A stretch of 19,975 bases of DNA from Candidatus Heimdallarchaeota archaeon (lineage in GTDB: Archaea > Asgardarchaeota > Heimdallarchaeia > Heimdallarchaeales > Heimdallarchaeaceae): positions 1 to 19,975 of the forward strand of contig DXJF01000009.1 in NCBI GenBank assembly GCA_019057375.1. Reading direction: 5' to 3'. Below the pieces are notes generated by a model. That model was not told the origin of the DNA and searched no databases. It saw only the letters and a list, made by a program, of their open reading frames with translations. Every line of letters starts with the position of its first letter. The stretch's first letter is position 1. This document shows positions 2,735-19,087 of the stretch, piece after piece. A program made the position numbers and the translations under genes.

Positions 2735-5579
2735 CTCGTTTTTTCCTGGTTATCAACAAATAAACAACACATACTGCTAGAGAAATTTCAACTACTATAG
2801 GTCCCCAAGAAACCTTTGCTAGAATATGAATTCTCCATGAATGTGTACCATATGAGGAACGGATTGCAAGAGTGTGTTCTCCTGGAGAAATTGAATATAG
2901 CGACGGGTCAAAAATGATTAAATATGTTCCATTACCATAATCAATCTTATCATAATTTCGAACTACAATGACATCCCCGTTCTCTACTGTTAAATAAAAA
3001 TCCCAATTGGTTAAGGGTTTATAATTGTTAGCAGCACTTATTGTTACTTCTATAGTGTCTTCTCCCTTTACTACTTCCAAACTAGATATATTATAAGCAA
3101 ATTCAAGATTTGAAACAACTGCTGTACCCATAATATTATGAAGTAATTCTTGATTATCTCCAAAATTTAAAGCAGAGTTCAACACTTTATAATCCATTTG
3201 CAAATTATCATAGAGATATGGAGAATTTAGAAACATTGACAAATCATTTACTGCGACTACTAGCGAACCATTGTTACTTCTATTGTCAGAATAAACAAAA
3301 CGATCAAATATTGTACTATCGGAATCATTTGTTTTTATCACATTAAAAGGAGATGGAATAAAGATCTCTTGCAGACTATTAGGATTTGAAGTCAAAAGAC
3401 GGAAATCTGATGATAAGTTAACCGTTTCATTGATTACTCCTGTTTGACTATAAGTAATGTTAAGTGCTTTAAGAAGGCTATTAAGGCTATCAATATCACT
3501 TTCTTTAGAAGGAAAAATTACTATTGCGCCACCCGAATAATCTTCTTCTGGATAGATGTAATCTAAAATTGCTGAAGAATCCAAAGAGGAGAAATTATGA
3601 AGAAGTGAACTATTATGGTTAATTAAAGCTATAACTTCGTAATTATTGAGATTCAGTTGATTTAGATGGAAAACATTTTCATCTCTTCTTAGTATTTCAG
3701 GAATCAACCCATAGAATCTAGCAGTATCTAGAAAATTGTTCAGATTACCAAATAACGAGAAAAACTTCTCATCTCCAACCTCATTACAGTCAAATAATAT
3801 CCTCCCTTTTCCAACTCTTATGTGAAGGTTAACATCTACAGGATAAATTTGATCATCGATTATGAAATCAAGATGACTACTTATGGGTCCCGTATACTGA
3901 TTCTCTGATGAAATTTCCACTAGAATATCGTATTGACCGATTTCATAGTCCGCTGGTATGTTGCTTAACGATAGTAACTCACTTAATACTACTGAATACT
4001 CTACTCTTAAATTATCAATTTCCTTGTTGATAAACAGATGAATATAGAATGATTGCCTTTCATTTTTGAAAAATACTTGTCGGATATAGGGTAAATCTGA
4101 AGGCCAGATGGTTATACTTTGTGGATGCTGTAAGTAGTATCTTGCTTCACTGGCATCTACTAATCCAGCTCCTTGATAAACTGGTGGTACTAAGAGGCTG
4201 ATATATTCTCCAAAAGGAGATAGATAATCTATTGTTAATGGATCCGAAGTTTCAAGAAGTGCAGCTTTCAAAATTGATGGTTTATAATCAGGATAAATTT
4301 GCTTTAATAACAAACACATTCCAGACACTACAGCTGTTGAATAACTTGTACCTGTTACCGTGGTTGATCCTTGTAAATTAGTAGAAGTAGTATTTAACAA
4401 AACACCCGGAGCAACAACATCTGGTTTTAACCAAGTATTTTCTAAATCTACCGAGTCAAAAAGAAAATTCTCTGAACTCACATTATAATTTTCTGCTACA
4501 GGACCAGCACTACACTCCTCGAATAAAATTATGTTATTATCTATAGCTCCCACTGTAATAGCCTGCATAGCAATTCCCGGACTTAAAATAGTATATTTAT
4601 CATTATAACCAAATTCAGAAATTCCACGTGAATTGCCTGCAGCTACACAAACCACAACTCCATTTCTTACTGCACTATTAACAGCTTCAACCTCCGGAGA
4701 TTCTTTATTCGATACTTCTTTTCCTAAAGAGAGATTTATTACATCTGCCCCGTTTTCTACAGCCCAATCAATTCCCTCAATTAAATCTTCAATTGAACCT
4801 GTAGCATCGTAGGAAAGAATCTTACCGACTAGAAATTTGCAGTTAGGGGCTACTCCGCGATCATATCCATATAATCCGTTACCACCAATTATCCCAGCAA
4901 CTTCTGTACCATGTCCATTATCATCTTCAACTTTAGCATCATTATCAATGAAATTCTTGCTGTCTATTATTCGATTTTCACCATCCATACCTACATCTAG
5001 TGCTGGATGATCTGTTTTTATTCCTGTATCCAGAATTGCAACTACTGTATCATTTCCGAAATATCCTAAATTCCAAAGGGCTTGAGAATGGATTTTGCTA
5101 TTAAAATCATCTATGTCTCTACTTAAGTTTAAAGAAGCCAGATGAACATCTGAACTAGCTGCTCTAATCCTTGAGTTTTTCCATACTGAAAGTATATTTC
5201 CCCTACTTATCTGGTGCAACAATGCATCTTTTGAAATTGTTAAAGCAATCCCTTCAAATGTTTCAAAGAATTTGAGATCTTTTCCCACAATTTTAAGAGA
5301 ATGAATAGCTTCTTCATTTTTAGTCTTTACTAGAAGTCTAAAGAAGTCATTATTTTTCGAATGAAGAATTTCATCTAGGAGAAAATTCTCTTGAAAGATA
5401 TTTGATAATTTATTGGCATCATTTGAAAGATTTAGAAAAGAATCATCAATTGAATGACTATAGGAAGTATAAGAAAACAAGCATAAAGTAATAATTAGAA
5501 AACCTGAACATTTTGTAAATAGGAGGGGAATTTGTTTCACATAACAAGTTTTACAATTTAAGTATAAAAATTTAAGCAC
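2724..5579 (-). CDS. Secreted, C-terminally membrane-anchored S8 (subtilisin-like) serine protease
   Basis: Catalytic motifs ILDTG (D), HGTEVAG (H), AAGN (oxyanion N) and GTSYS (S). N-terminal hydrophobic signal and propeptide; C-terminal TM WGPIVVEISLAVCVVYLLIT followed by RKKRVKS; many N-x-S/T sequons. The true start may be GTG at 5540 (MKQIPLLF...). Confidence 0.93.
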   Translation of the reverse strand: MLKFLYLNCKTCYVKQIPLLFTKCSGFLIITLCLFSYTSYSHSIDDSFLNLSNDANKLSNIFQENFLLDEILHSKNNDFFRLLVKTKNEEAIHSLKIVGKDLKFFETFEGIALTISKDALLHQISRGNILSVWKNSRIRAASSDVHLASLNLSRDIDDFNSKIHSQALWNLGYFGNDTVVAILDTGIKTDHPALDVGMDGENRIIDSKNFIDNDAKVEDDNGHGTEVAGIIGGNGLYGYDRGVAPNCKFLVGKILSYDATGSIEDLIEGIDWAVENGADVINLSLGKEVSNKESPEVEAVNSAVRNGVVVCVAAGNSRGISEFGYNDKYTILSPGIAMQAITVGAIDNNIILFEECSAGPVAENYNVSSENFLFDSVDLENTWLKPDVVAPGVLLNTTSTNLQGSTTVTGTSYSTAVVSGMCLLLKQIYPDYKPSILKAALLETSDPLTIDYLSPFGEYISLLVPPVYQGAGLVDASEARYYLQHPQSITIWPSDLPYIRQVFFKNERQSFYIHLFINKEIDNLRVEYSVVLSELLSLSNIPADYEIGQYDILVEISSENQYTGPISSHLDFIIDDQIYPVDVNLHIRVGKGRILFDCNEVGDEKFFSLFGNLNNFLDTARFYGLIPEILRRDENVFHLNQLNLNNYEVIALINHNSSLLHNFSSLDSSAILDYIYPEEDYSGGAIVIFPSKESDIDSLNSLLKALNITYSQTGVINETVNLSSDFRLLTSNPNSLQEIFIPSPFNVIKTNDSDSTIFDRFVYSDNRSNNGSLVVAVNDLSMFLNSPYLYDNLQMDYKVLNSALNFGDNQELLHNIMGTAVVSNLEFAYNISSLEVVKGEDTIEVTISAANNYKPLTNWDFYLTVENGDVIVVRNYDKIDYGNGTYLIIFDPSLYSISPGEHTLAIRSSYGTHSWRIHILAKVSWGPIVVEISLAVCVVYLLITRKKRVKS
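5563..5570 (-). promoter_or_regulatory. Putative TATA box of the S8 protease gene
   Basis: TTTTTATA on the minus strand, 23-30 nt upstream of GTG 5540, the spacing expected for a leaderless archaeal transcript. Confidence 0.45.
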
Positions 5580-5583
5580 GTTA

Positions 5584-5700
5584 TGAAACTTGGCTAGACT
5601 AGCCAGAAGGCGTCTAACTGTCGTTTAAATGGGTCCCCTACACGTGCGTTGAGGGGAAGGAATCTTTAGGAAGGAGTTTACCTGAGAGGGAGGAAATATT
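5584..5700 (-). ncRNA. Candidate omegaRNA/reRNA scaffold and right end of the TnpB-like element
   Basis: Hairpin TCCCCT..AGGGGA (5634-5657) spans the stop codon; hairpin TGGCTA-GTC-TAGCCA at 5591-5605 is followed by AGTTTCA. The layout resembles IS200/IS605 right ends. Boundaries are inferred. Confidence 0.55.
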
Positions 5701-7566
5701 CCATGCAGCATTTTTATGAGTATTAACTTGTTGTCCACACTTATTACAAGGAGCAATATCATACTGACCAAGTTGACGAGTAAGGACTCCCCCACATCTA
5801 TGATGGGATGTGCTAGTGTTATAAGGAAGAACTTCCTCTAGTTGTACATCATAACCTAATTCTAAGGAGGCTAGCCAGACAGCTTTTTTATAAATGAAGA
5901 TACCATCAGGCATGGTGTAAATAGCCTTAGCTAATGCACCTTTAGTTCCAGTAGGATCTGCATTAAGTCTTTCAATCTTGAGTGTTTGACATTTCTTTTT
6001 CACCATCACTGCTGCAAGAAAATGTGGAAGAAGACGAAGGATTTCTCGAAGGATCCTGCTACGACGAGTATGCACACGATTAAGTTCTCCCTTCAGTTTA
6101 CAACACCCTCTGACATCATGTTCTTTTCTCTTACGGAGCAATCCTCGAGTTAGCTCGGGAAGAACTTTCTCGCTCAGATGAGTATAATGTTCTGCTAATC
6201 TTAGCAAATCTTGAGGGAGACTAAGAGCAGCATTGAACATAACCATATACTGCCCTAAACGATTGATATCTATCCCAAGAACTGGTGATTTTCCTCTAGG
6301 AATATTAGCTAAATAAGTGTGGAGAAGAGTACTGGAATGGAAACAGACATGTGTTCCTTCTAGCACCACATCCACACGAGGTTTGAAACAAGGGGCATGT
6401 CCACTACTCACTTGGAAGACTCTGATATGAGCACCATTTTGGAGATAATCTAGAACTTTGGGAGGGAATTGAACTACAGCTGTGAGTTTCTTCTTTCCTT
6501 TCTTTGGAAAGCCTAGTTGGGTCCATCCATGTTTCTTAACTTGATTGGTGAGGTCTTGAGCATTCCCTTGACGGGTAATAACATAGTCTTTTTTCATGTG
6601 TAATTTAATGGGTAGATTTCCTTTCTTCTTTCGTTTATATGGGAGAGTAACAACTGCTGTAGCTGGAATGACCTTGATTAACTGAGGGACACTCTGCATG
6701 AAATAATCAAAGAGTGTGAAAACTACTATTAAGCGCAATGCTGAAAAGAGTTTTCGGGTAGGTTTTCCTATTACAATAGCTAGTTGTTCTGCGAGAGTTT
6801 TGAAACTTTTCCAACGAGAACTCTGAGGACTGCTAATCCATGAAGTGAGAAAGGGAACAATAATATTCTGTTCTTTCTTTAAGAGTTGGAGTTTTTCTAG
6901 AAACGCTTTCTGATTCTTCTTCAATTGTGGAAAGAGGGAAAATTTATGGTTGTGGTAAAACAGTGCATCATCAATAGCTTGGACAACTTCAAGTTGAGTA
7001 CATGTTGGAAGGAAGGCGTTTAATTGTAAGAACTTGGGAATATTGTATTTCTTTTGCTTTTTTCTCCAATAAGAATCGGTCTGTGCCCTAGTACTTGTCA
7101 GAAGATTAATTATATATCTTCTTCTTACTCTCCAATGGTTCTGCAAACTACGTTCAGTATAAGGAGAACGACTGAAAATCAACCATTCTATCAGTTGTTG
7201 AGGATTCTTCAATAAAAAGTTGAATAATCCTTGTACTTTTCGTTCTTTGTCAACTTTCCCCTTGATAGCAATGTGAAGCCAATGAAATGCACTTTGAGCA
7301 ATATTGGGGCTTTTCCCTACTTCTTTACAGAGTTGTTGAGTGAAGAATTTTTCTCTAGGTTTTCTTTGATACAACTCCACAGCTTTCTTTATAGTTCGAG
7401 TAGTAAGCAGTTTATGTTGTCTTTCTTCTAACTCTCTTATTCGTTGATTAATCTCTTCTCGTTGGTGTTGGTCAACACATTTTAGTACTACTTGATAACT
7501 TCTCATCACTTTCTCTGAAGGAGAAGAGGTATGTGCTTGTTTCTTACTTGATGCTTGTGTGACCAA
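5638..7566 (-). CDS. tnpB: Large TnpB/Cas12-like RNA-guided RuvC protein with RuvC-III Asp replaced by His
   Basis: RuvC-I VLGIDIN (D433), bridge helix, RuvC-II LKIERL (E532), VLPYNTS, Zn site HHRC...CNKC (588-610), RuvC-III NTHKNAAWNI (H617 at the D-x-N-A-A position). Likely start is ATG 7506 (MRSYQVVLK, a WED beta1-like strand). Confidence 0.88.
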   Translation of the reverse strand: MVTQASSKKQAHTSSPSEKVMRSYQVVLKCVDQHQREEINQRIRELEERQHKLLTTRTIKKAVELYQRKPREKFFTQQLCKEVGKSPNIAQSAFHWLHIAIKGKVDKERKVQGLFNFLLKNPQQLIEWLIFSRSPYTERSLQNHWRVRRRYIINLLTSTRAQTDSYWRKKQKKYNIPKFLQLNAFLPTCTQLEVVQAIDDALFYHNHKFSLFPQLKKNQKAFLEKLQLLKKEQNIIVPFLTSWISSPQSSRWKSFKTLAEQLAIVIGKPTRKLFSALRLIVVFTLFDYFMQSVPQLIKVIPATAVVTLPYKRKKKGNLPIKLHMKKDYVITRQGNAQDLTNQVKKHGWTQLGFPKKGKKKLTAVVQFPPKVLDYLQNGAHIRVFQVSSGHAPCFKPRVDVVLEGTHVCFHSSTLLHTYLANIPRGKSPVLGIDINRLGQYMVMFNAALSLPQDLLRLAEHYTHLSEKVLPELTRGLLRKRKEHDVRGCCKLKGELNRVHTRRSRILREILRLLPHFLAAVMVKKKCQTLKIERLNADPTGTKGALAKAIYTMPDGIFIYKKAVWLASLELGYDVQLEEVLPYNTSTSHHRCGGVLTRQLGQYDIAPCNKCGQQVNTHKNAAWNISSLSGKLLPKDSFPSTHV

Positions 7567-7600
7567 CTTACTTTCACTAGTAGGTATATCCGCAAAATGA

Positions 7601-7608
7601 TATTTAAA
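7601..7608 (-). promoter_or_regulatory. Putative TATA box for the tnpB-like gene
   Basis: TTTAAATA on the minus strand about 35-42 nt upstream of the TTG at 7566; palindrome GAGAAA-A-TTTCTC (7613-7625) lies just upstream of it. Confidence 0.45.
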
Positions 7609-7762
7609 GGGTGAGAAAATTTCTCTAAAGAGTTGTTTTTCCTATTTTGCTTAATTTGTTTCTTTCTTTTTTCTTCTTACTCTGAAAAACCTTTTTGATC
7701 GCTTTCTCCCTCTTTGTAAGATTTGATAACTTTTTACTACTCAGTAGTTTAAGGTGAAGTAC

Positions 7763-10272: not shown

Positions 10273-12441
10273 TTATGTGGTTTTAATTTCTAATTCGGAT
10301 ATATGTTCAATAAAGAACTTCATAACTTTCTTTCTTACTCCCGCATAGAATTTAATTGAACCTACAACTTCGTGCCCGCCACCCTCAACATCGGCTTCAG
10401 GAATTTTGCTTTGCATTAATTTCACAGCATTGGGGAAATTTATTACAAGTCCCTTAGAACGAAGAATTATGAAGTCTGGACCTTCTCCAAGAGTAACCAC
10501 AGCTTTATCAGGATTTTCATGACAATGATGATCGAAAATTAATCCTGTTAGTTTACCAGGATTCGGGAAAGTAAATCTATGCGTATACATCTCTACATCT
10601 ATAGTTACCAGTAACACACCATTTGTTAGTTCCTTGACCTTACTATGAGGAAGAGCATTCTTATACGCTTTATCCATCATCTCTCTTGTTTCTCTTCCGA
10701 TTAAAGTGTACATCTTTGTATGCCATTCTGCTGGAGTATCAACACCAAATAAAATTTTCATAAGATTTTGTCCTTCCGAAAATCTTAGTTGATATACTTC
10801 ATAGTCCACAGCTATACCAATATTCTTCAGATCATCTATTGTATAATCTTTGGATTCAGCTAACTTGATGTATTGCTCCAGTTCTTTTCCTTCAACTCTA
10901 TCCATCAACCCTGCAATTGCTGGTAGATGTAGTAAATCATCATGGATACTAGAGCAGATTATCCTAGCTAATTCAAAACCCAACATACCAGCTGATAGTT
11001 CATATCCTCCACCGACGAAATATGGATTTACATGTATATCTACTAAATCTTTGATTTCTTTATCGGGAAAATGGTGATCTATTACAATTACTTCTAAATC
11101 TAGTGATTTAATTTGTAAATAGGGGAAGAGAGATTCAGTACTCGATCCAAAATCTAAGCACACGAATAAGGGTAACTTGTCACCAAATCTTTCCTGATCT
11201 GCTAATGCAAAGTCAAGATCTTTTGTAACGTCAATAGCATCATAGAATGGTGGTTTATTAGGTAGGCGTTTCAACCTCACCCTTATTGTATCGGCATCAT
11301 ACCCCTCTTTTTCCATCAAGTTTTTGATAGCCATCTTGACTGCAAATCCTGCAACTGTACCATCAGCATCAGCATGATTTCGTATGATTATGGGTTGACC
11401 TGTGTAAATGGCTTTCCTAATACGTTTAGCAGCTTTAGTAAGGTCTGGTCTAAGTTTTTCTAGAAGCTCACTTTTAATCGAAAAATCTATTTTTTGAGGA
11501 GTAGCTTTTTTATCTATGGCTTTCTCGATTTCTTTTACTAAAATAGAACTCTCAGCTGCATCCAAAGTTTCCATATCTTTTATTTCAATTTGTAAAATAT
11601 CTCTATGTTTATTTATTTCTCCGAAAATTGCTACAACCGTATCTTCTTCAATTTCTGGAAATGCTCTTTCTCCGGGTTTAATGAATGCAGCACCATTAAT
11701 TGAACCAGTTTGATCAACAAGAGTAAAACGAGTGGGTCCCGATGTTTGTAAAACAGAAACAACTTGTGCATTAAGAGAGATAAAGGAACCTTCCATGTCT
11801 TGATTCAGGTTATTAATTTGAAGTTTTCTTACTCTTCCTCGTAAAGATTCTATTGCATAATCATCTATATTCTGAGGAATACCAAAAAGTTTTCCTTGAT
11901 CATTTATGAAATTGACTTTAACAATTACTTCCTCTCCAATATCCCATGCATAGTCTTGAGTTACATCTTTTGTTCTTATTAGAACATTCGAATCAGGTGC
12001 AATTTGAACAAAAACACCTACTTTTTTCACTGCATCAACTCTAGAAAGAATTAACATTCCTGTTCTAACTAGTCGTGAATCAACGGGGGGTTTTAAACTA
12101 TAAACAACTGGAACTTTCGTTTTCTCACAACTACTACATATGCCAGAAGAAGTTGGTTCTTTTATTATTTTCATGCAATTTGAACATAATTGAACTGATT
12201 TGTTTCCTCCACATGTTGGACACTTTTCACGTAAAATGATTTTTCCTGTTCCTTGGCATTTCTCACAAGCTTGTCCTTCTTTAGTTTCACCTAGTGTGAA
12301 GGCTGTTTTACCTATACCTAAACACGATGGACAAGTCATTTTTTCCTTTATAATCTTTCCTCGACCTTTACAAGTGGGACATTTTGAACTCAAGATTTTT
12401 ACACCTATATTTAATAATAGACTAACGAAACAAAAATTCAA
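10273..12441 (-). CDS. Archaeal RecJ-like DHH phosphoesterase with DnaJ-type Zn finger, S1 and OB folds (COG1107, HAN-like)
   Basis: CxxCxGxG repeats (CPTCKGRG, CPSCLGIG, CEKCQGTG, degenerate CPTCGGNK); S1-like VGVFVQI; OB fold; HADADG, LDFG, IDHH and GGGH (DHHA1) motifs. Likely start is TTG 12393 after AGGTG. Confidence 0.9.
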   Translation of the reverse strand: MNFCFVSLLLNIGVKILSSKCPTCKGRGKIIKEKMTCPSCLGIGKTAFTLGETKEGQACEKCQGTGKIILREKCPTCGGNKSVQLCSNCMKIIKEPTSSGICSSCEKTKVPVVYSLKPPVDSRLVRTGMLILSRVDAVKKVGVFVQIAPDSNVLIRTKDVTQDYAWDIGEEVIVKVNFINDQGKLFGIPQNIDDYAIESLRGRVRKLQINNLNQDMEGSFISLNAQVVSVLQTSGPTRFTLVDQTGSINGAAFIKPGERAFPEIEEDTVVAIFGEINKHRDILQIEIKDMETLDAAESSILVKEIEKAIDKKATPQKIDFSIKSELLEKLRPDLTKAAKRIRKAIYTGQPIIIRNHADADGTVAGFAVKMAIKNLMEKEGYDADTIRVRLKRLPNKPPFYDAIDVTKDLDFALADQERFGDKLPLFVCLDFGSSTESLFPYLQIKSLDLEVIVIDHHFPDKEIKDLVDIHVNPYFVGGGYELSAGMLGFELARIICSSIHDDLLHLPAIAGLMDRVEGKELEQYIKLAESKDYTIDDLKNIGIAVDYEVYQLRFSEGQNLMKILFGVDTPAEWHTKMYTLIGRETREMMDKAYKNALPHSKVKELTNGVLLVTIDVEMYTHRFTFPNPGKLTGLIFDHHCHENPDKAVVTLGEGPDFIILRSKGLVINFPNAVKLMQSKIPEADVEGGGHEVVGSIKFYAGVRKKVMKFFIEHISELEIKTT

Positions 12442-17002: not shown

Positions 17003-19087
17003 ATGAGTAATCGTAGAGAGAGTGAAACTGAGATAGATGATTATATCTTTTGTCCCAAATGTGGGAAAATCATACCATCTAATGCAAATAATGGAATTTG
17101 TACTAAATGCGACACACCTCTCAGTCAACCAGTTGTTCATAAGCGAGTAAATACGAATAAAGTGTGGGAGGAGTATTTTCCTTATATTGAAGTTAGACCT
17201 CTTCAAGATCAAATTATTGAGAGTATTTCTGAAGAGAACAACAATCAAAAACATGTAACTATTCAAGCTGCTAACGGTGTAGGTAAAACAATCGCTGTTT
17301 TGACAGCTTTATTACCAATCTGCATAAAGAAAAAGAAAACTATAGTTTACTGTTGCAGAACTCATCAACAAATGAGTAGGGTGATAGAAGAACTAAAGAT
17401 GATTAAACAGCTTAAACCTATTTCAGGAATTGCTCTAAGAGGGAGAAAAGAATTATGTTTACACCCTATTATTCAGAAGTTTGCATTAGATTCCGCAAAT
17501 GCTGCAGATATTTGCAGATATCTAAAAAAAGAGAATAAATGCAAATATTTCTCCAACATTGCTAATAAAGATATTAAAACAAAAATAGATGAGATAACTA
17601 AAAAGCAAGTTCTAGATAGTTTGGAGATATTTGGAATTGGAAAATCCCTTGAAGTATGCCCATTTGAAATTTCGAAGAAAGTGATACCAAACGTAAATGT
17701 TGTAGCAGCTAGTTATCAACATATTTTCAATCCGGGAGTACAAGCGAATTTCCTAATGAATTTGGATAAAGAATTGAAGGACATCATATTAGTAATTGAT
17801 GAAGCTCATAATTTACCTTCAACAGCTGTTGATATTAGTAGTAGTAGTTTATCAAATTTTAGTATTGATAATGCTAAATCAGAAGCGATGAAATACAAGA
17901 TGGGTGAAATTTATGATCTACTAGATGCTTTATCTTTAGTATTGCTTGATGAGAGTTCTTCTTTAGAAATAAATGAAGAAATGGTTTTCAATCCAGTAGA
18001 TATTATTAAAAAAGTAGAGAAGGAAGCTGGTCAAAAAATTGATGACCAGCTCCTAAAATCGCTAGACAGACTTGCTGATTTCGTTAAAGAAATGCAAGCT
18101 AAACAGAATAAAGCTCCTCTTTCTTACACATCTGCAGTTGTATCCTATCTCAAACGGCTTCTTGAAACAAAAACAAGAGATGACTATGCTCATTTCATTT
18201 TGAAAACAGAATCAAAAGCTGGAAACATAGGTTCAAAACTATTAACACAATCGCTTGACCCAAGATCAATAACAGGAGATATTCTAGCTAATGTACATAT
18301 GTCTGTTTCCTTATCAGGAACTTTAGATCCAATTGAAGCCTATACATCACTGATTGGGCTTCCACTTGAAAATTTAAAGAGTCTTAGTTTGCCTTCTCCT
18401 TACAAAAAAGAAAACCATGTTACTTTGGTAATTGATAAGCTTTCATCCAAACTAGAAGATCGAATTCCTGCTACATTTCTGAAAATGATGGAAGTAATTA
18501 CAGAAACAGTTGAGTCAACACCAAAAAATGTAGGTATTTTCTGTGCAAGTTATGTTATTATGAAAAGTATCCTTGAAACAGGTTTAGAAAGAGCTATATC
18601 AAAACCTCTTTTTATTGCTCATCAGGGAATGTCTTCTCGAGAAAACGATAAATTAATTCAGGATTTTAAGAATGAATCCAAGAAGAAAGGTGGTGTATTA
18701 ATTTCTGTTCTAGGGGGTAGGTCATCTGAAGGTAGTGACTATCCAGCAAGTGAAATGCAGAGTGTAATTATTGTAGGAATTCCTTATGCAAGACCAACTC
18801 CTACAGTAAAAGCCAGCATAGATTATTTGGAAAAGCAATTTCCAACCAAGGGGAGAGAGTTTGGCTATAATATCCCTGCAATTACAAGAGCAGCTCAAGC
18901 AGCGGGGAGACCAATTAGAAGCTTGGAAGATTACGCAGTAATCATGTTACTTGACTATCGCTTTGCTAGACATTATTATAAAAAACATCTCCCTGTATGG
19001 TTAAAGGATAACTTACATCTAGTGCAACCAGAAAAGGAAATATTGCAGGATAAAATTAAACAATTCTATCAATACCATGGAGACTAA
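17003..19087 (+). CDS. xpd: XPD/Rad3-family Fe-S SF2 DNA helicase with N-terminal zinc ribbon
   Basis: Q motif RPLQ, Walker A AANGVGKT, Fe-S cysteines (LCLHP, ICRY, KCKYF, VCPF), DEAH, SGTL, SEGSDY, QAAGRPIR. N-terminal CPKC..CTKC. Confidence 0.93.
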   Translation: MSNRRESETEIDDYIFCPKCGKIIPSNANNGICTKCDTPLSQPVVHKRVNTNKVWEEYFPYIEVRPLQDQIIESISEENNNQKHVTIQAANGVGKTIAVLTALLPICIKKKKTIVYCCRTHQQMSRVIEELKMIKQLKPISGIALRGRKELCLHPIIQKFALDSANAADICRYLKKENKCKYFSNIANKDIKTKIDEITKKQVLDSLEIFGIGKSLEVCPFEISKKVIPNVNVVAASYQHIFNPGVQANFLMNLDKELKDIILVIDEAHNLPSTAVDISSSSLSNFSIDNAKSEAMKYKMGEIYDLLDALSLVLLDESSSLEINEEMVFNPVDIIKKVEKEAGQKIDDQLLKSLDRLADFVKEMQAKQNKAPLSYTSAVVSYLKRLLETKTRDDYAHFILKTESKAGNIGSKLLTQSLDPRSITGDILANVHMSVSLSGTLDPIEAYTSLIGLPLENLKSLSLPSPYKKENHVTLVIDKLSSKLEDRIPATFLKMMEVITETVESTPKNVGIFCASYVIMKSILETGLERAISKPLFIAHQGMSSRENDKLIQDFKNESKKKGGVLISVLGGRSSEGSDYPASEMQSVIIVGIPYARPTPTVKASIDYLEKQFPTKGREFGYNIPAITRAAQAAGRPIRSLEDYAVIMLLDYRFARHYYKKHLPVWLKDNLHLVQPEKEILQDKIKQFYQYHGD

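Follow-up and report, generated by a model that had tools for sequence, protein, structure and literature searches.

The window analysed here, a stretch of 19,975 nt from Candidatus Heimdallarchaeota archaeon (contig DXJF01000009.1, assembly GCA_019057375.1), carries on its minus strand a tnpB-like gene within an insertion of the IS607 type. The encoded protein has a histidine, His617, at the RuvC-III position that is occupied by aspartate in canonical TnpB and Cas12 proteins. We find, with very little doubt, that this histidine is a fixed and selected hallmark of a whole protein family that resides in mobile IS607-type elements. Furthermore, judging from the sequences and by analogy to other nucleases, we consider it fairly probable that a clade of large TnpBs restricted to Asgard archaea normally has this histidine as its third active-site residue and that the D433-E532-H617 centre would be catalytically competent.

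His617 and its conservation across the family

The open reading frame (ORF) of the tnpB-like gene lies at 5638..7566 (minus strand) and encodes 642 aa when read from TTG 7566 or 622 aa when read from ATG 7506. The second start (MRSYQVV...) is conserved in the family and is the more likely one; we count residues from TTG 7566 throughout, and His617 becomes His597 if ATG 7506 is the start. The original prediction, made from the window sequence, stated that the RuvC-III aspartate is replaced by histidine while D433 and E532 are intact, and both statements hold. The His617 codon is CAT (5716..5718, minus strand; ATG on the plus strand) within the local motif V-N-T-H-K-N-A-A-W-N-I. The RuvC-I residue Asp433 (GAT, 6268..6270, minus strand) lies in the family motif G-x-D-x-N-R, and Glu532 of RuvC-II is encoded by GAA at 5971..5973 (minus strand). 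In a phmmer search against the PDB, '...KCGQQVNTHKNAAWNIS' pairs with '...KCGYKVNADYNAARNIA' of CnCas12f1 (8hr5). The family profile likewise places H617 on the RuvC-III aspartate of CnCas12f1 (8hr5, 'VNADYNAARNI'), ISFba1 TnpB (8iaz, 'EDRAFNAALNL') and OsCas12f (9nzq, 'ANADFNASQNI'), and aligns D433 ('GlDvN') and E532 ('viEdL') to RuvC-I and RuvC-II of the same three proteins. Thus, instead of the canonical D-E-D triad, D433 and E532 are kept and the third position is a histidine, and this is the case family-wide.

The genome from which the window derives (3.47 Mb in 159 contigs, 89% complete) contains ten full-length paralogues with 41-75% identity and one fragment. All ten paralogues have the motif N-T-H-x-N-A-A. 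We read 42 loci in total, comprising the copies from this genome and 32 from other Heimdallarchaeota genomes; the motif is covered in 34 of them, and His is present in 34/34, encoded by CAT in 19 loci and by CAC in 15. The residue is therefore maintained although its codon varies. When 1.84 billion representatives were searched exhaustively with HMMER, only 152 relatives were found at E <= 0.001. Among the 150 relatives listed, nearly all that cover the motif read ...N-T/V/S-H-x-N-A/S-A, and none has Asp. In an alignment of 36 sequences (A1, mean column identity 24%), D433, N435, E532, C591, C607 and C610 are invariant, and H588 and H617 are conserved in at least 90%. The residues H588, C591, C607 and C610 form a zinc finger of the His-Cys3 type in the TNB domain (5737..5805, minus strand). 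To assess selection, we estimated the ratio of non-synonymous to synonymous substitution rates (dN/dS; pairwise Nei-Gojobori) among 22 intact copies (231 pairs) and obtained a median of 0.13 with a range of 0.10-0.19, at dS ~1.

These data bear on the caveat in the original prediction that the histidine might be a private inactivating mutation. CAT is indeed one substitution away from GAT, and two of the ten paralogues in the same genome contain a single internal stop. However, the same His in 10/10 paralogues and in 34/34 related loci excludes a sequencing error or chance, both codons are used within the conserved motif N-T-H-x-N-A-A, and the window copy has an intact frame, low dN/dS and a confidently predicted fold. 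We thus reject the caveat, since the close homologues all carry His, and we assign a negligible probability to a private GAT-to-CAT change, a sequencing error or a decaying pseudogene. The check that had been proposed, conservation of the histidine together with dN/dS, instead favours His as a meaningful alternative residue, as no close homologue has Asp.

The histidine is not a general property of TnpBs in this genome. At least 15 TnpBs from two other families (loci L043-L059) retain the canonical Asp: the first family (~420 aa, no zinc-finger cysteines) reads INADVNAAYNI and the second (~550 aa) reads LDADLNGAKNI. Because the other TnpB families of the same genome keep Asp, we conclude that the histidine is lineage-specific and does not reflect a general drift. 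The two kinds of protein differ also at RuvC-I, which is G-x-D-L-G in the Asp-type TnpBs and G-x-D-x-N-R in the His family. The comparison suggests that a Gly-to-Asn change at RuvC-I position +2 is correlated with the Asp-to-His change at RuvC-III.

The reading frame of the window copy is intact and the protein is not truncated. The AlphaFold2 (AF2) model, obtained with the family alignment, has a mean predicted local distance difference test (pLDDT) of 88.8 and a predicted template modelling score (pTM) of 0.78, with residues 1-16 disordered. It consists of a first WED strand (20-29), a large helical REC lobe (33-305), a WED sheet (320-404), the RuvC-I strand (429-434), long helices, the RuvC-II strand (528-532), a zinc-finger TNB insert and a final helix (616-626) that starts at His617. 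The domain order is WED-REC-WED-RuvC-TNB-RuvC, and the WED-REC-RuvC-TNB architecture of the TnpB/Cas12f-like fold is thus present. Consistent with this, the Pfam match is Cas12f1-like_TNB, and the best Foldseek matches in the PDB are Cas12f/TnpB complexes (8hr5, 8j3r, 8iaz, 8dzj and 8h1j; E 1e-9 to 1e-7 over 460-540 columns).

In the data searched, all named relatives come from Asgard archaea, namely Heimdallarchaeota and Odinarchaeota, and the proteins of the family have ~620-700 aa. Among 151 sampled genomes of the phylum, the family occurs in 9/9 genomes of the same genus and in 11/13 of the same family, and sporadically elsewhere; genomes that have it typically contain 2-8 copies, most of them intact. 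An N-terminal fusion to a ribbon-helix-helix (RHH)/MazE domain was considered and ruled out, as residues 20-29 are the first WED strand and are followed by the helical REC lobe. A sub-threshold MazE-like match was observed in a single relative, P0066, which has 1784 aa. A further relative of 1344 aa, located on an Odinarchaeota contig (L085, 1389-12035), has the N-T-H motif and lies beside genes for Piwi (prokaryotic Argonaute, pAgo), SLFN/AlbA_2 and a DNA methyltransferase, and this neighbourhood may be a defence island.

The mobile element, its predicted RNA and its probable target

The whole insertion spans ~2.18 kb (5571..7753, minus strand). Comparison with empty sites delimits it as an IS607-type element without tnpA that is bounded by the repeat CTTAAA, found at both junctions (7753-7748 and 5576-5571). 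Its left end (7716..7753, minus strand), as defined by the alignment of left ends and by the empty sites, begins after host ...TTCAC and includes the conserved motif CGTAGTCAACTGA.GAGTAAAAACTTACCCAATCTT. In 17-18 of 18 loci, AC are the last host bases 5' of this motif. A TTTAAATA box (7601..7608, minus strand) resembling an archaeal TATA box precedes the ATG by ~95 nt. Together with the leader, this box is conserved in 27 aligned upstream regions; it is the putative promoter of both tnpB and the omega-RNA.

Full-length relatives of the element suggest what the window copy has lost. In two loci (L018 and L036), the left end and tnpB are separated by a 196-aa ORF with MerR-type helix-turn-helix (HTH) and resolvase domains; by its domain content, we take it to be the IS607-type serine transposase TnpA. 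Four more loci (L020, L028, L040 and L041) have an equally long spacing between left end and tnpB. The window copy has just ~190 nt between its left end and the ORF, and tnpA has been deleted. In the assembly (89% complete) we found only four other resolvase ORFs, all on other contigs, and no Y1 TnpA of the IS200/IS605 type.

The tips of the element are not inverted repeats. Instead, 6 nt (CTTAAA) are common to both junctions here and CGT in most other copies, which fits an IS607-type exchange over a short identical core (PMC6188088), while a short duplication would also be possible. Further inside, the two ends are joined by a 19-nt imperfect inverted repeat (GGCAAG.TT....AAGTTT) with 13.1/19 identical positions in register compared to 2-8 out of register. 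In the window it lies at ~7733-7715 in the left end and ~5604-5586 in the right end (minus strand); this is the most degenerate copy (10/19), and the repeat is clearer in loci L005-L033. These subterminal repeats are probably binding sites of TnpA.

The downstream flanks of the 34 loci are mutually unrelated. Furthermore, we located in four sister genomes the orthologous spacer, with an HAD hydrolase gene on one side and an S8 protease gene on the other; its flanks match the window at 70-96% identity, and the element is missing in 4/4 cases. The empty site reads ...TTCAC CTTAAA TTTTTATA..., that is, ...TTCAC|CTTAAATTTTTATA.... With varied contexts and insertion polymorphism, the element is mobile in the manner of the IS607 family. 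Two paralogues in the same genome were observed close to tRNA sequences: L002 (contig C65) has near-identical pieces of a tRNA gene on both flanks (...GTCAAGGAGGTATCATAGCCA.GCTAGATCACTGCCCC...), and L004 abuts a tRNA-like sequence.

At its 3' end, the gene overlaps a predicted omega-RNA-like scaffold (5574..5668, minus strand), which is supported by a drop of conservation in 34 loci and by covariation. When the 3' flanks of these loci are aligned, conservation extends ~60 nt past the stop codon and ends sharply after ...TTTCATAACGTGCGT, ...CATAACGTGCGT or ...AAGTTTCATAACGTGCGT. We tested the RNA structure on the alignment of these 34 sequences (A2). Covariation points to a first hairpin that spans the stop codon (5656-5652 with 5639-5635), a second hairpin (5619-5613 with 5598-5592) and a 7-bp pseudoknot (5648-5642 with 5581-5575), all on the minus strand, in which the loop of hairpin 1 pairs with the last scaffold bases. 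The helices are paired in 91.6% of cells, compared to 20-50% when the partners are slid, and the observed covariation score was reached by 0/500 shuffles. Changes on both sides were found in 9/20 pairs, including 5/8 pseudoknot pairs tested; the eighth pair is unsupported, which leaves 7 bp. Distant paralogues keep the pseudoknot pairing with different letters (for example, CACATAC with GTATGTG). Since minimum free energy (MFE) folding of the 3' region is not exceptional (z -1.07), the case for the RNA rests on covariation. Scans of the window for Rfam families and tRNAs found nothing. The overlap of the scaffold with the 3' end of the ORF and the sharp boundary between scaffold and guide are both features of TnpB systems.

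The first flank bases after the scaffold form the predicted guide segment (CTTAAATTTTTATACTTAAA; 5557..5576, minus strand), as suggested by the boundary and the empty sites, although the position of its first base can be given only to within 6 nt. Each of the 34 loci has its own flank and guide. In the window copy, the guide segment is identical or near-identical to the uninterrupted target in the sister genomes. At the predicted RNA 3' end, ...AACGTG is followed by CTTAAATTTTTATAC..., which exactly equals the uninterrupted target adjoining the flanking AC. In the occupied locus, the guide match stops after 6 nt at the left junction, and at the right junction the bases ahead of the match belong to the scaffold (...CGTG) and are not AC. 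The arrangement predicted from these sequences is the one that lets canonical TnpBs attack the empty allele, and the flanking AC would act as the target-adjacent motif (TAM).

The gene next to the right end codes for an S8 protease. Its listed start, GTG 5579 (region 5527-5579 of the window, minus strand), falls inside the right end of the element, and the true start is likely GTG 5540, from which the protein begins with a signal-peptide-like sequence (MKQIPLLF...). A TTTTTATA box lies between the two GTG codons and is present also in the empty sites of the sister genomes.

This arrangement raises the question of whether the protein has been domesticated as a repressor of the S8 protease gene, with a guide that covers the promoter of that gene, similar to TldRs. 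Like TldRs and other nuclease-dead exapted TnpBs, the window protein is derived from TnpB, has a non-canonical RuvC and has no adjacent transposase. The guide segment (5576-5557) overlies the TATA-like TTTTTATA, which shortly precedes the probable start of the S8 gene (5540), tnpA is absent beside this copy and the other nine, and no orthologue of the family TnpA was found in the assembly. However, TldRs lose catalytic residues or their C-terminus, are immobile and have fixed partner genes, whereas the family keeps D-E-H, is multicopy and shows insertion polymorphism. We found neither lost catalytic residues nor truncation in the window copy, nor immobility, nor a fixed regulated gene. The same spacer lacks the element in four sister genomes, so the S8 gene works without it, and flank and guide differ at every copy. 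In addition, the guide match in the occupied locus follows scaffold DNA (...CGTG) and not the conserved AC. We thus consider a TldR-like repressor highly improbable. The original prediction had raised repurposing as a TldR or as a Cas12k- or Cas12m-like binder as one possibility; an untruncated protein with invariant D433 and E532, in a mobile element whose guide is the insertion flank, does not support this.

Possible functions of the D-E-H centre

What would a TnpB with this centre do? In the reading that we favour, the window holds one intact tnpB copy without a transposase gene, and the TATA-like box of the element would drive its transcription. Two hairpins and a pseudoknot at the 3' end of this RNA would make up the omega-RNA scaffold, with the guide coming from the adjoining flank. 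As canonical TnpB does, the ribonucleoprotein would then recognise the allele without the insertion, where the guide match comes directly after ...AC, for retention of the transposon or for homing. In the active site, the imidazole of the histidine would take the place of the carboxylate as a ligand of metal or water, as in DEDH Argonautes, and the D-E-H centre would still process the omega-RNA and cut DNA. The Argonaute PIWI domain (DEDH tetrad) and other RNase H-fold nucleases with a His ligand offer a precedent, since at their two-metal RNase H-like centres a histidine takes the role of a carboxylate. However, in Argonautes there are three carboxylates beside the His and only two are evident here; this is an analogy only, as the substitution is not homologous. 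The family-specific Asn435 may help by compensating for the lost carboxylate, because the Asp-type TnpBs of the same genome have Gly at this position.

Published data on related enzymes can be compared to this reading. In Altae-Tran et al. 2023 (PMC10691335), six large TnpB branches with an altered RuvC-III are described, of which the largest, RIIIr-4, has an Asp-to-His change, and retained activity is inferred for the rearranged branches. The published RIIIr-4 exemplar also reads D-A-N at RuvC-I, a clear site of omega-RNA processing was seen in vitro for one His-type (RIIIr-4) orthologue, and omega-RNA processing by AmaTnpB needs the RuvC domain (all PMC10278001).

Several observations weigh against a catalytically competent centre in an active element. 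Gln replaces His in two distant lineages (P0025, P0058 and P0084; P0098 and P0119) with D and E kept, and the position may thus not need a strong metal ligand. The copies within the genome are old (dS ~1), a tnpA gene adjoins none of the ten copies, and we found no orthologue of the family TnpA in the assembly, which is 89% complete. Furthermore, in the TAM screen on double-stranded DNA of PMC10278001, the only rearranged enzyme named as active was an RII-r5 orthologue and not the RIIIr-4 orthologue that was tested.

Some of these observations would also be expected if the protein were an RNA-guided DNA binder that does not cleave DNA and keeps D-E-H only to process its omega-RNA, as in Cas12c or Cas12m. 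Binding might then serve the transposon, for instance by flagging the empty allele to the serine recombinase, or it might disturb replication or transcription. Loss of the RuvC-III carboxylate normally ends Mg-dependent DNA cleavage, as is the case in D-to-A mutants of TnpB and Cas12. Gln is tolerated in two lineages, RNA processing alone could explain why D and E are invariant, and the His-type orthologue of Nety et al. processed RNA while activity on double-stranded DNA was not reported (PMC10278001). However, the layout is that of canonical homing, with AC at the left end and a guide that equals the right flank and the empty site, and homing is based on cleavage in the characterised TnpBs. 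Moreover, known derivatives that only bind have usually lost several catalytic residues or are truncated and immobile (PMC10691335), whereas here all three positions are fixed and the elements are mobile. We regard a pure binder as possible yet doubtful.

A further reading, which we consider unlikely, is that the D-E-H centre together with the co-varying Asn435 of RuvC-I confers a changed chemistry. The enzyme might prefer Mn2+ or a different transition metal, it might only nick, or it might cleave RNA only and bind DNA so as to pass the empty allele on to the IS607 serine recombinase. If the last version were true, it would amount to RNA-guided homing without a double-strand break.

Relation to known systems and genomic context

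The family is most similar to the TnpBs of IS607 elements (ISFba1 TnpB, 8iaz; IS607/IS1535, Chen et al. 2018, PMC6188088). In both, a serine-recombinase TnpA (MerR-like HTH plus resolvase) lies upstream of tnpB in full-length relatives, the tips lack inverted repeats, the junctions share a short identity that is probably not a true duplication, a guide RNA (omega-RNA/reRNA) is located at the 3' end of tnpB, and the fold and the RuvC-I and RuvC-II motifs align. The family differs in having His and not Asp at RuvC-III, D-x-N-R and not D-x-G at RuvC-I, and a His-Cys3 finger. Its protein is ~200 aa longer with a bigger REC lobe, its junction sequence is CGT-like (CTTAAA here) and not GG, and within the data searched the family is confined to Asgard archaea. 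Among PDB entries, Cas12f proteins (CnCas12f1, 8hr5; AsCas12f, 8j3r) match best in both structure and sequence; their domain order is the same and they are of similar size. In contrast to them, the window gene is transposon-borne, has a single flank-derived guide and a D-E-H triad, and is accompanied by no CRISPR array or cas gene in the window.

With RIIIr-4, the family shares the Asp-to-His change across a whole clade, as described in PMC10691335. That description has RIIIr-4 without a C4 zinc finger, whereas the Asgard family keeps H588-C591-C607-C610, unless 'lacks C4' is meant to include the His-Cys3 form. Furthermore, by our reading of the RNA in the supplement of PMC10278001, the RIIIr-4 exemplar (Nocardiopsis, 529 aa) has ...S-R-H-D-A-A-S-I..., compared to N-T-H-x-N-A-A in the Asgard family. 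Altae-Tran et al. 2023 also list rearranged branches that are nearly exclusive to archaea (Ser-6, MazE and RIIIr-6), some of them linked to serine recombinases (PMC10691335). Judging from these descriptions, it is plausible that the Asgard family is a branch separate from RIIIr-4, perhaps Ser-6. We also considered the Asgard Cas1-linked TnpB type with a downstream GTTCACTCA motif that is described there (PMC10691335), but this motif is absent downstream of the 34 loci. No Cas1 was found beside the Odinarchaeota relatives.

Clades with an Asp-to-His change at RuvC-III were already catalogued in 2023 (PMC10691335). The window gene therefore represents no new type of system, and its histidine is no private defect. 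Our full-text literature search for TnpB together with Heimdallarchaeota, or for 'RIIIr-4', returned nothing beyond PMC10691335 and PMC10278001. Contigs of Heimdallarchaeota AB_125 that contain the family (L016, L021, L022 and L024) bear MEHH01 accessions. We take these to belong to an assembly deposited years before the Altae-Tran census; because the assembly predates the census, the family is probably already in those data. For the window copy, our analysis adds that sister genomes have the empty site, in which guide and target match, and that the Asp-type TnpBs of the same genome contrast with it. It also adds the link between the RuvC-I Asn and the RuvC-III His, and the Gln variants.

The remainder of the window has a few further features. 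A 23-nt unit (TT[A/T]GACATCCTATTATCTCTTGT) occurs in two tandem copies at 792-837, and the surrounding stretch of ~900 nt (282-1179) has no ORF of at least 80 aa. At 10273-12441 (minus strand) lies a gene for a 722-aa protein with a DnaJ-type CXXCXGXG zinc finger, an OB fold and a DHH domain (RecJ/GAN-like), and at 17003-19087 (plus strand) one for an XPD-type helicase with an HBB domain. These two genes are ordinary archaeal replication and repair context.

As a feature of the genome, the insertion is an ordinary insertion sequence. To our knowledge, no TnpB or Cas12 with a RuvC-III His has been shown to cut DNA. The family is a well-defined test case for this: the protein is intact, the borders of the guide-RNA scaffold are defined, a flanking motif is probable, and sister genomes provide a natural target. 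If the enzyme is active, a wider chemistry would be allowed in RuvC nucleases, and compact archaeal enzymes would become available for the editing toolbox. If it only binds, the family would represent a still-mobile transposon that gave up cutting, which would change the view of how TnpB serves IS607 elements.

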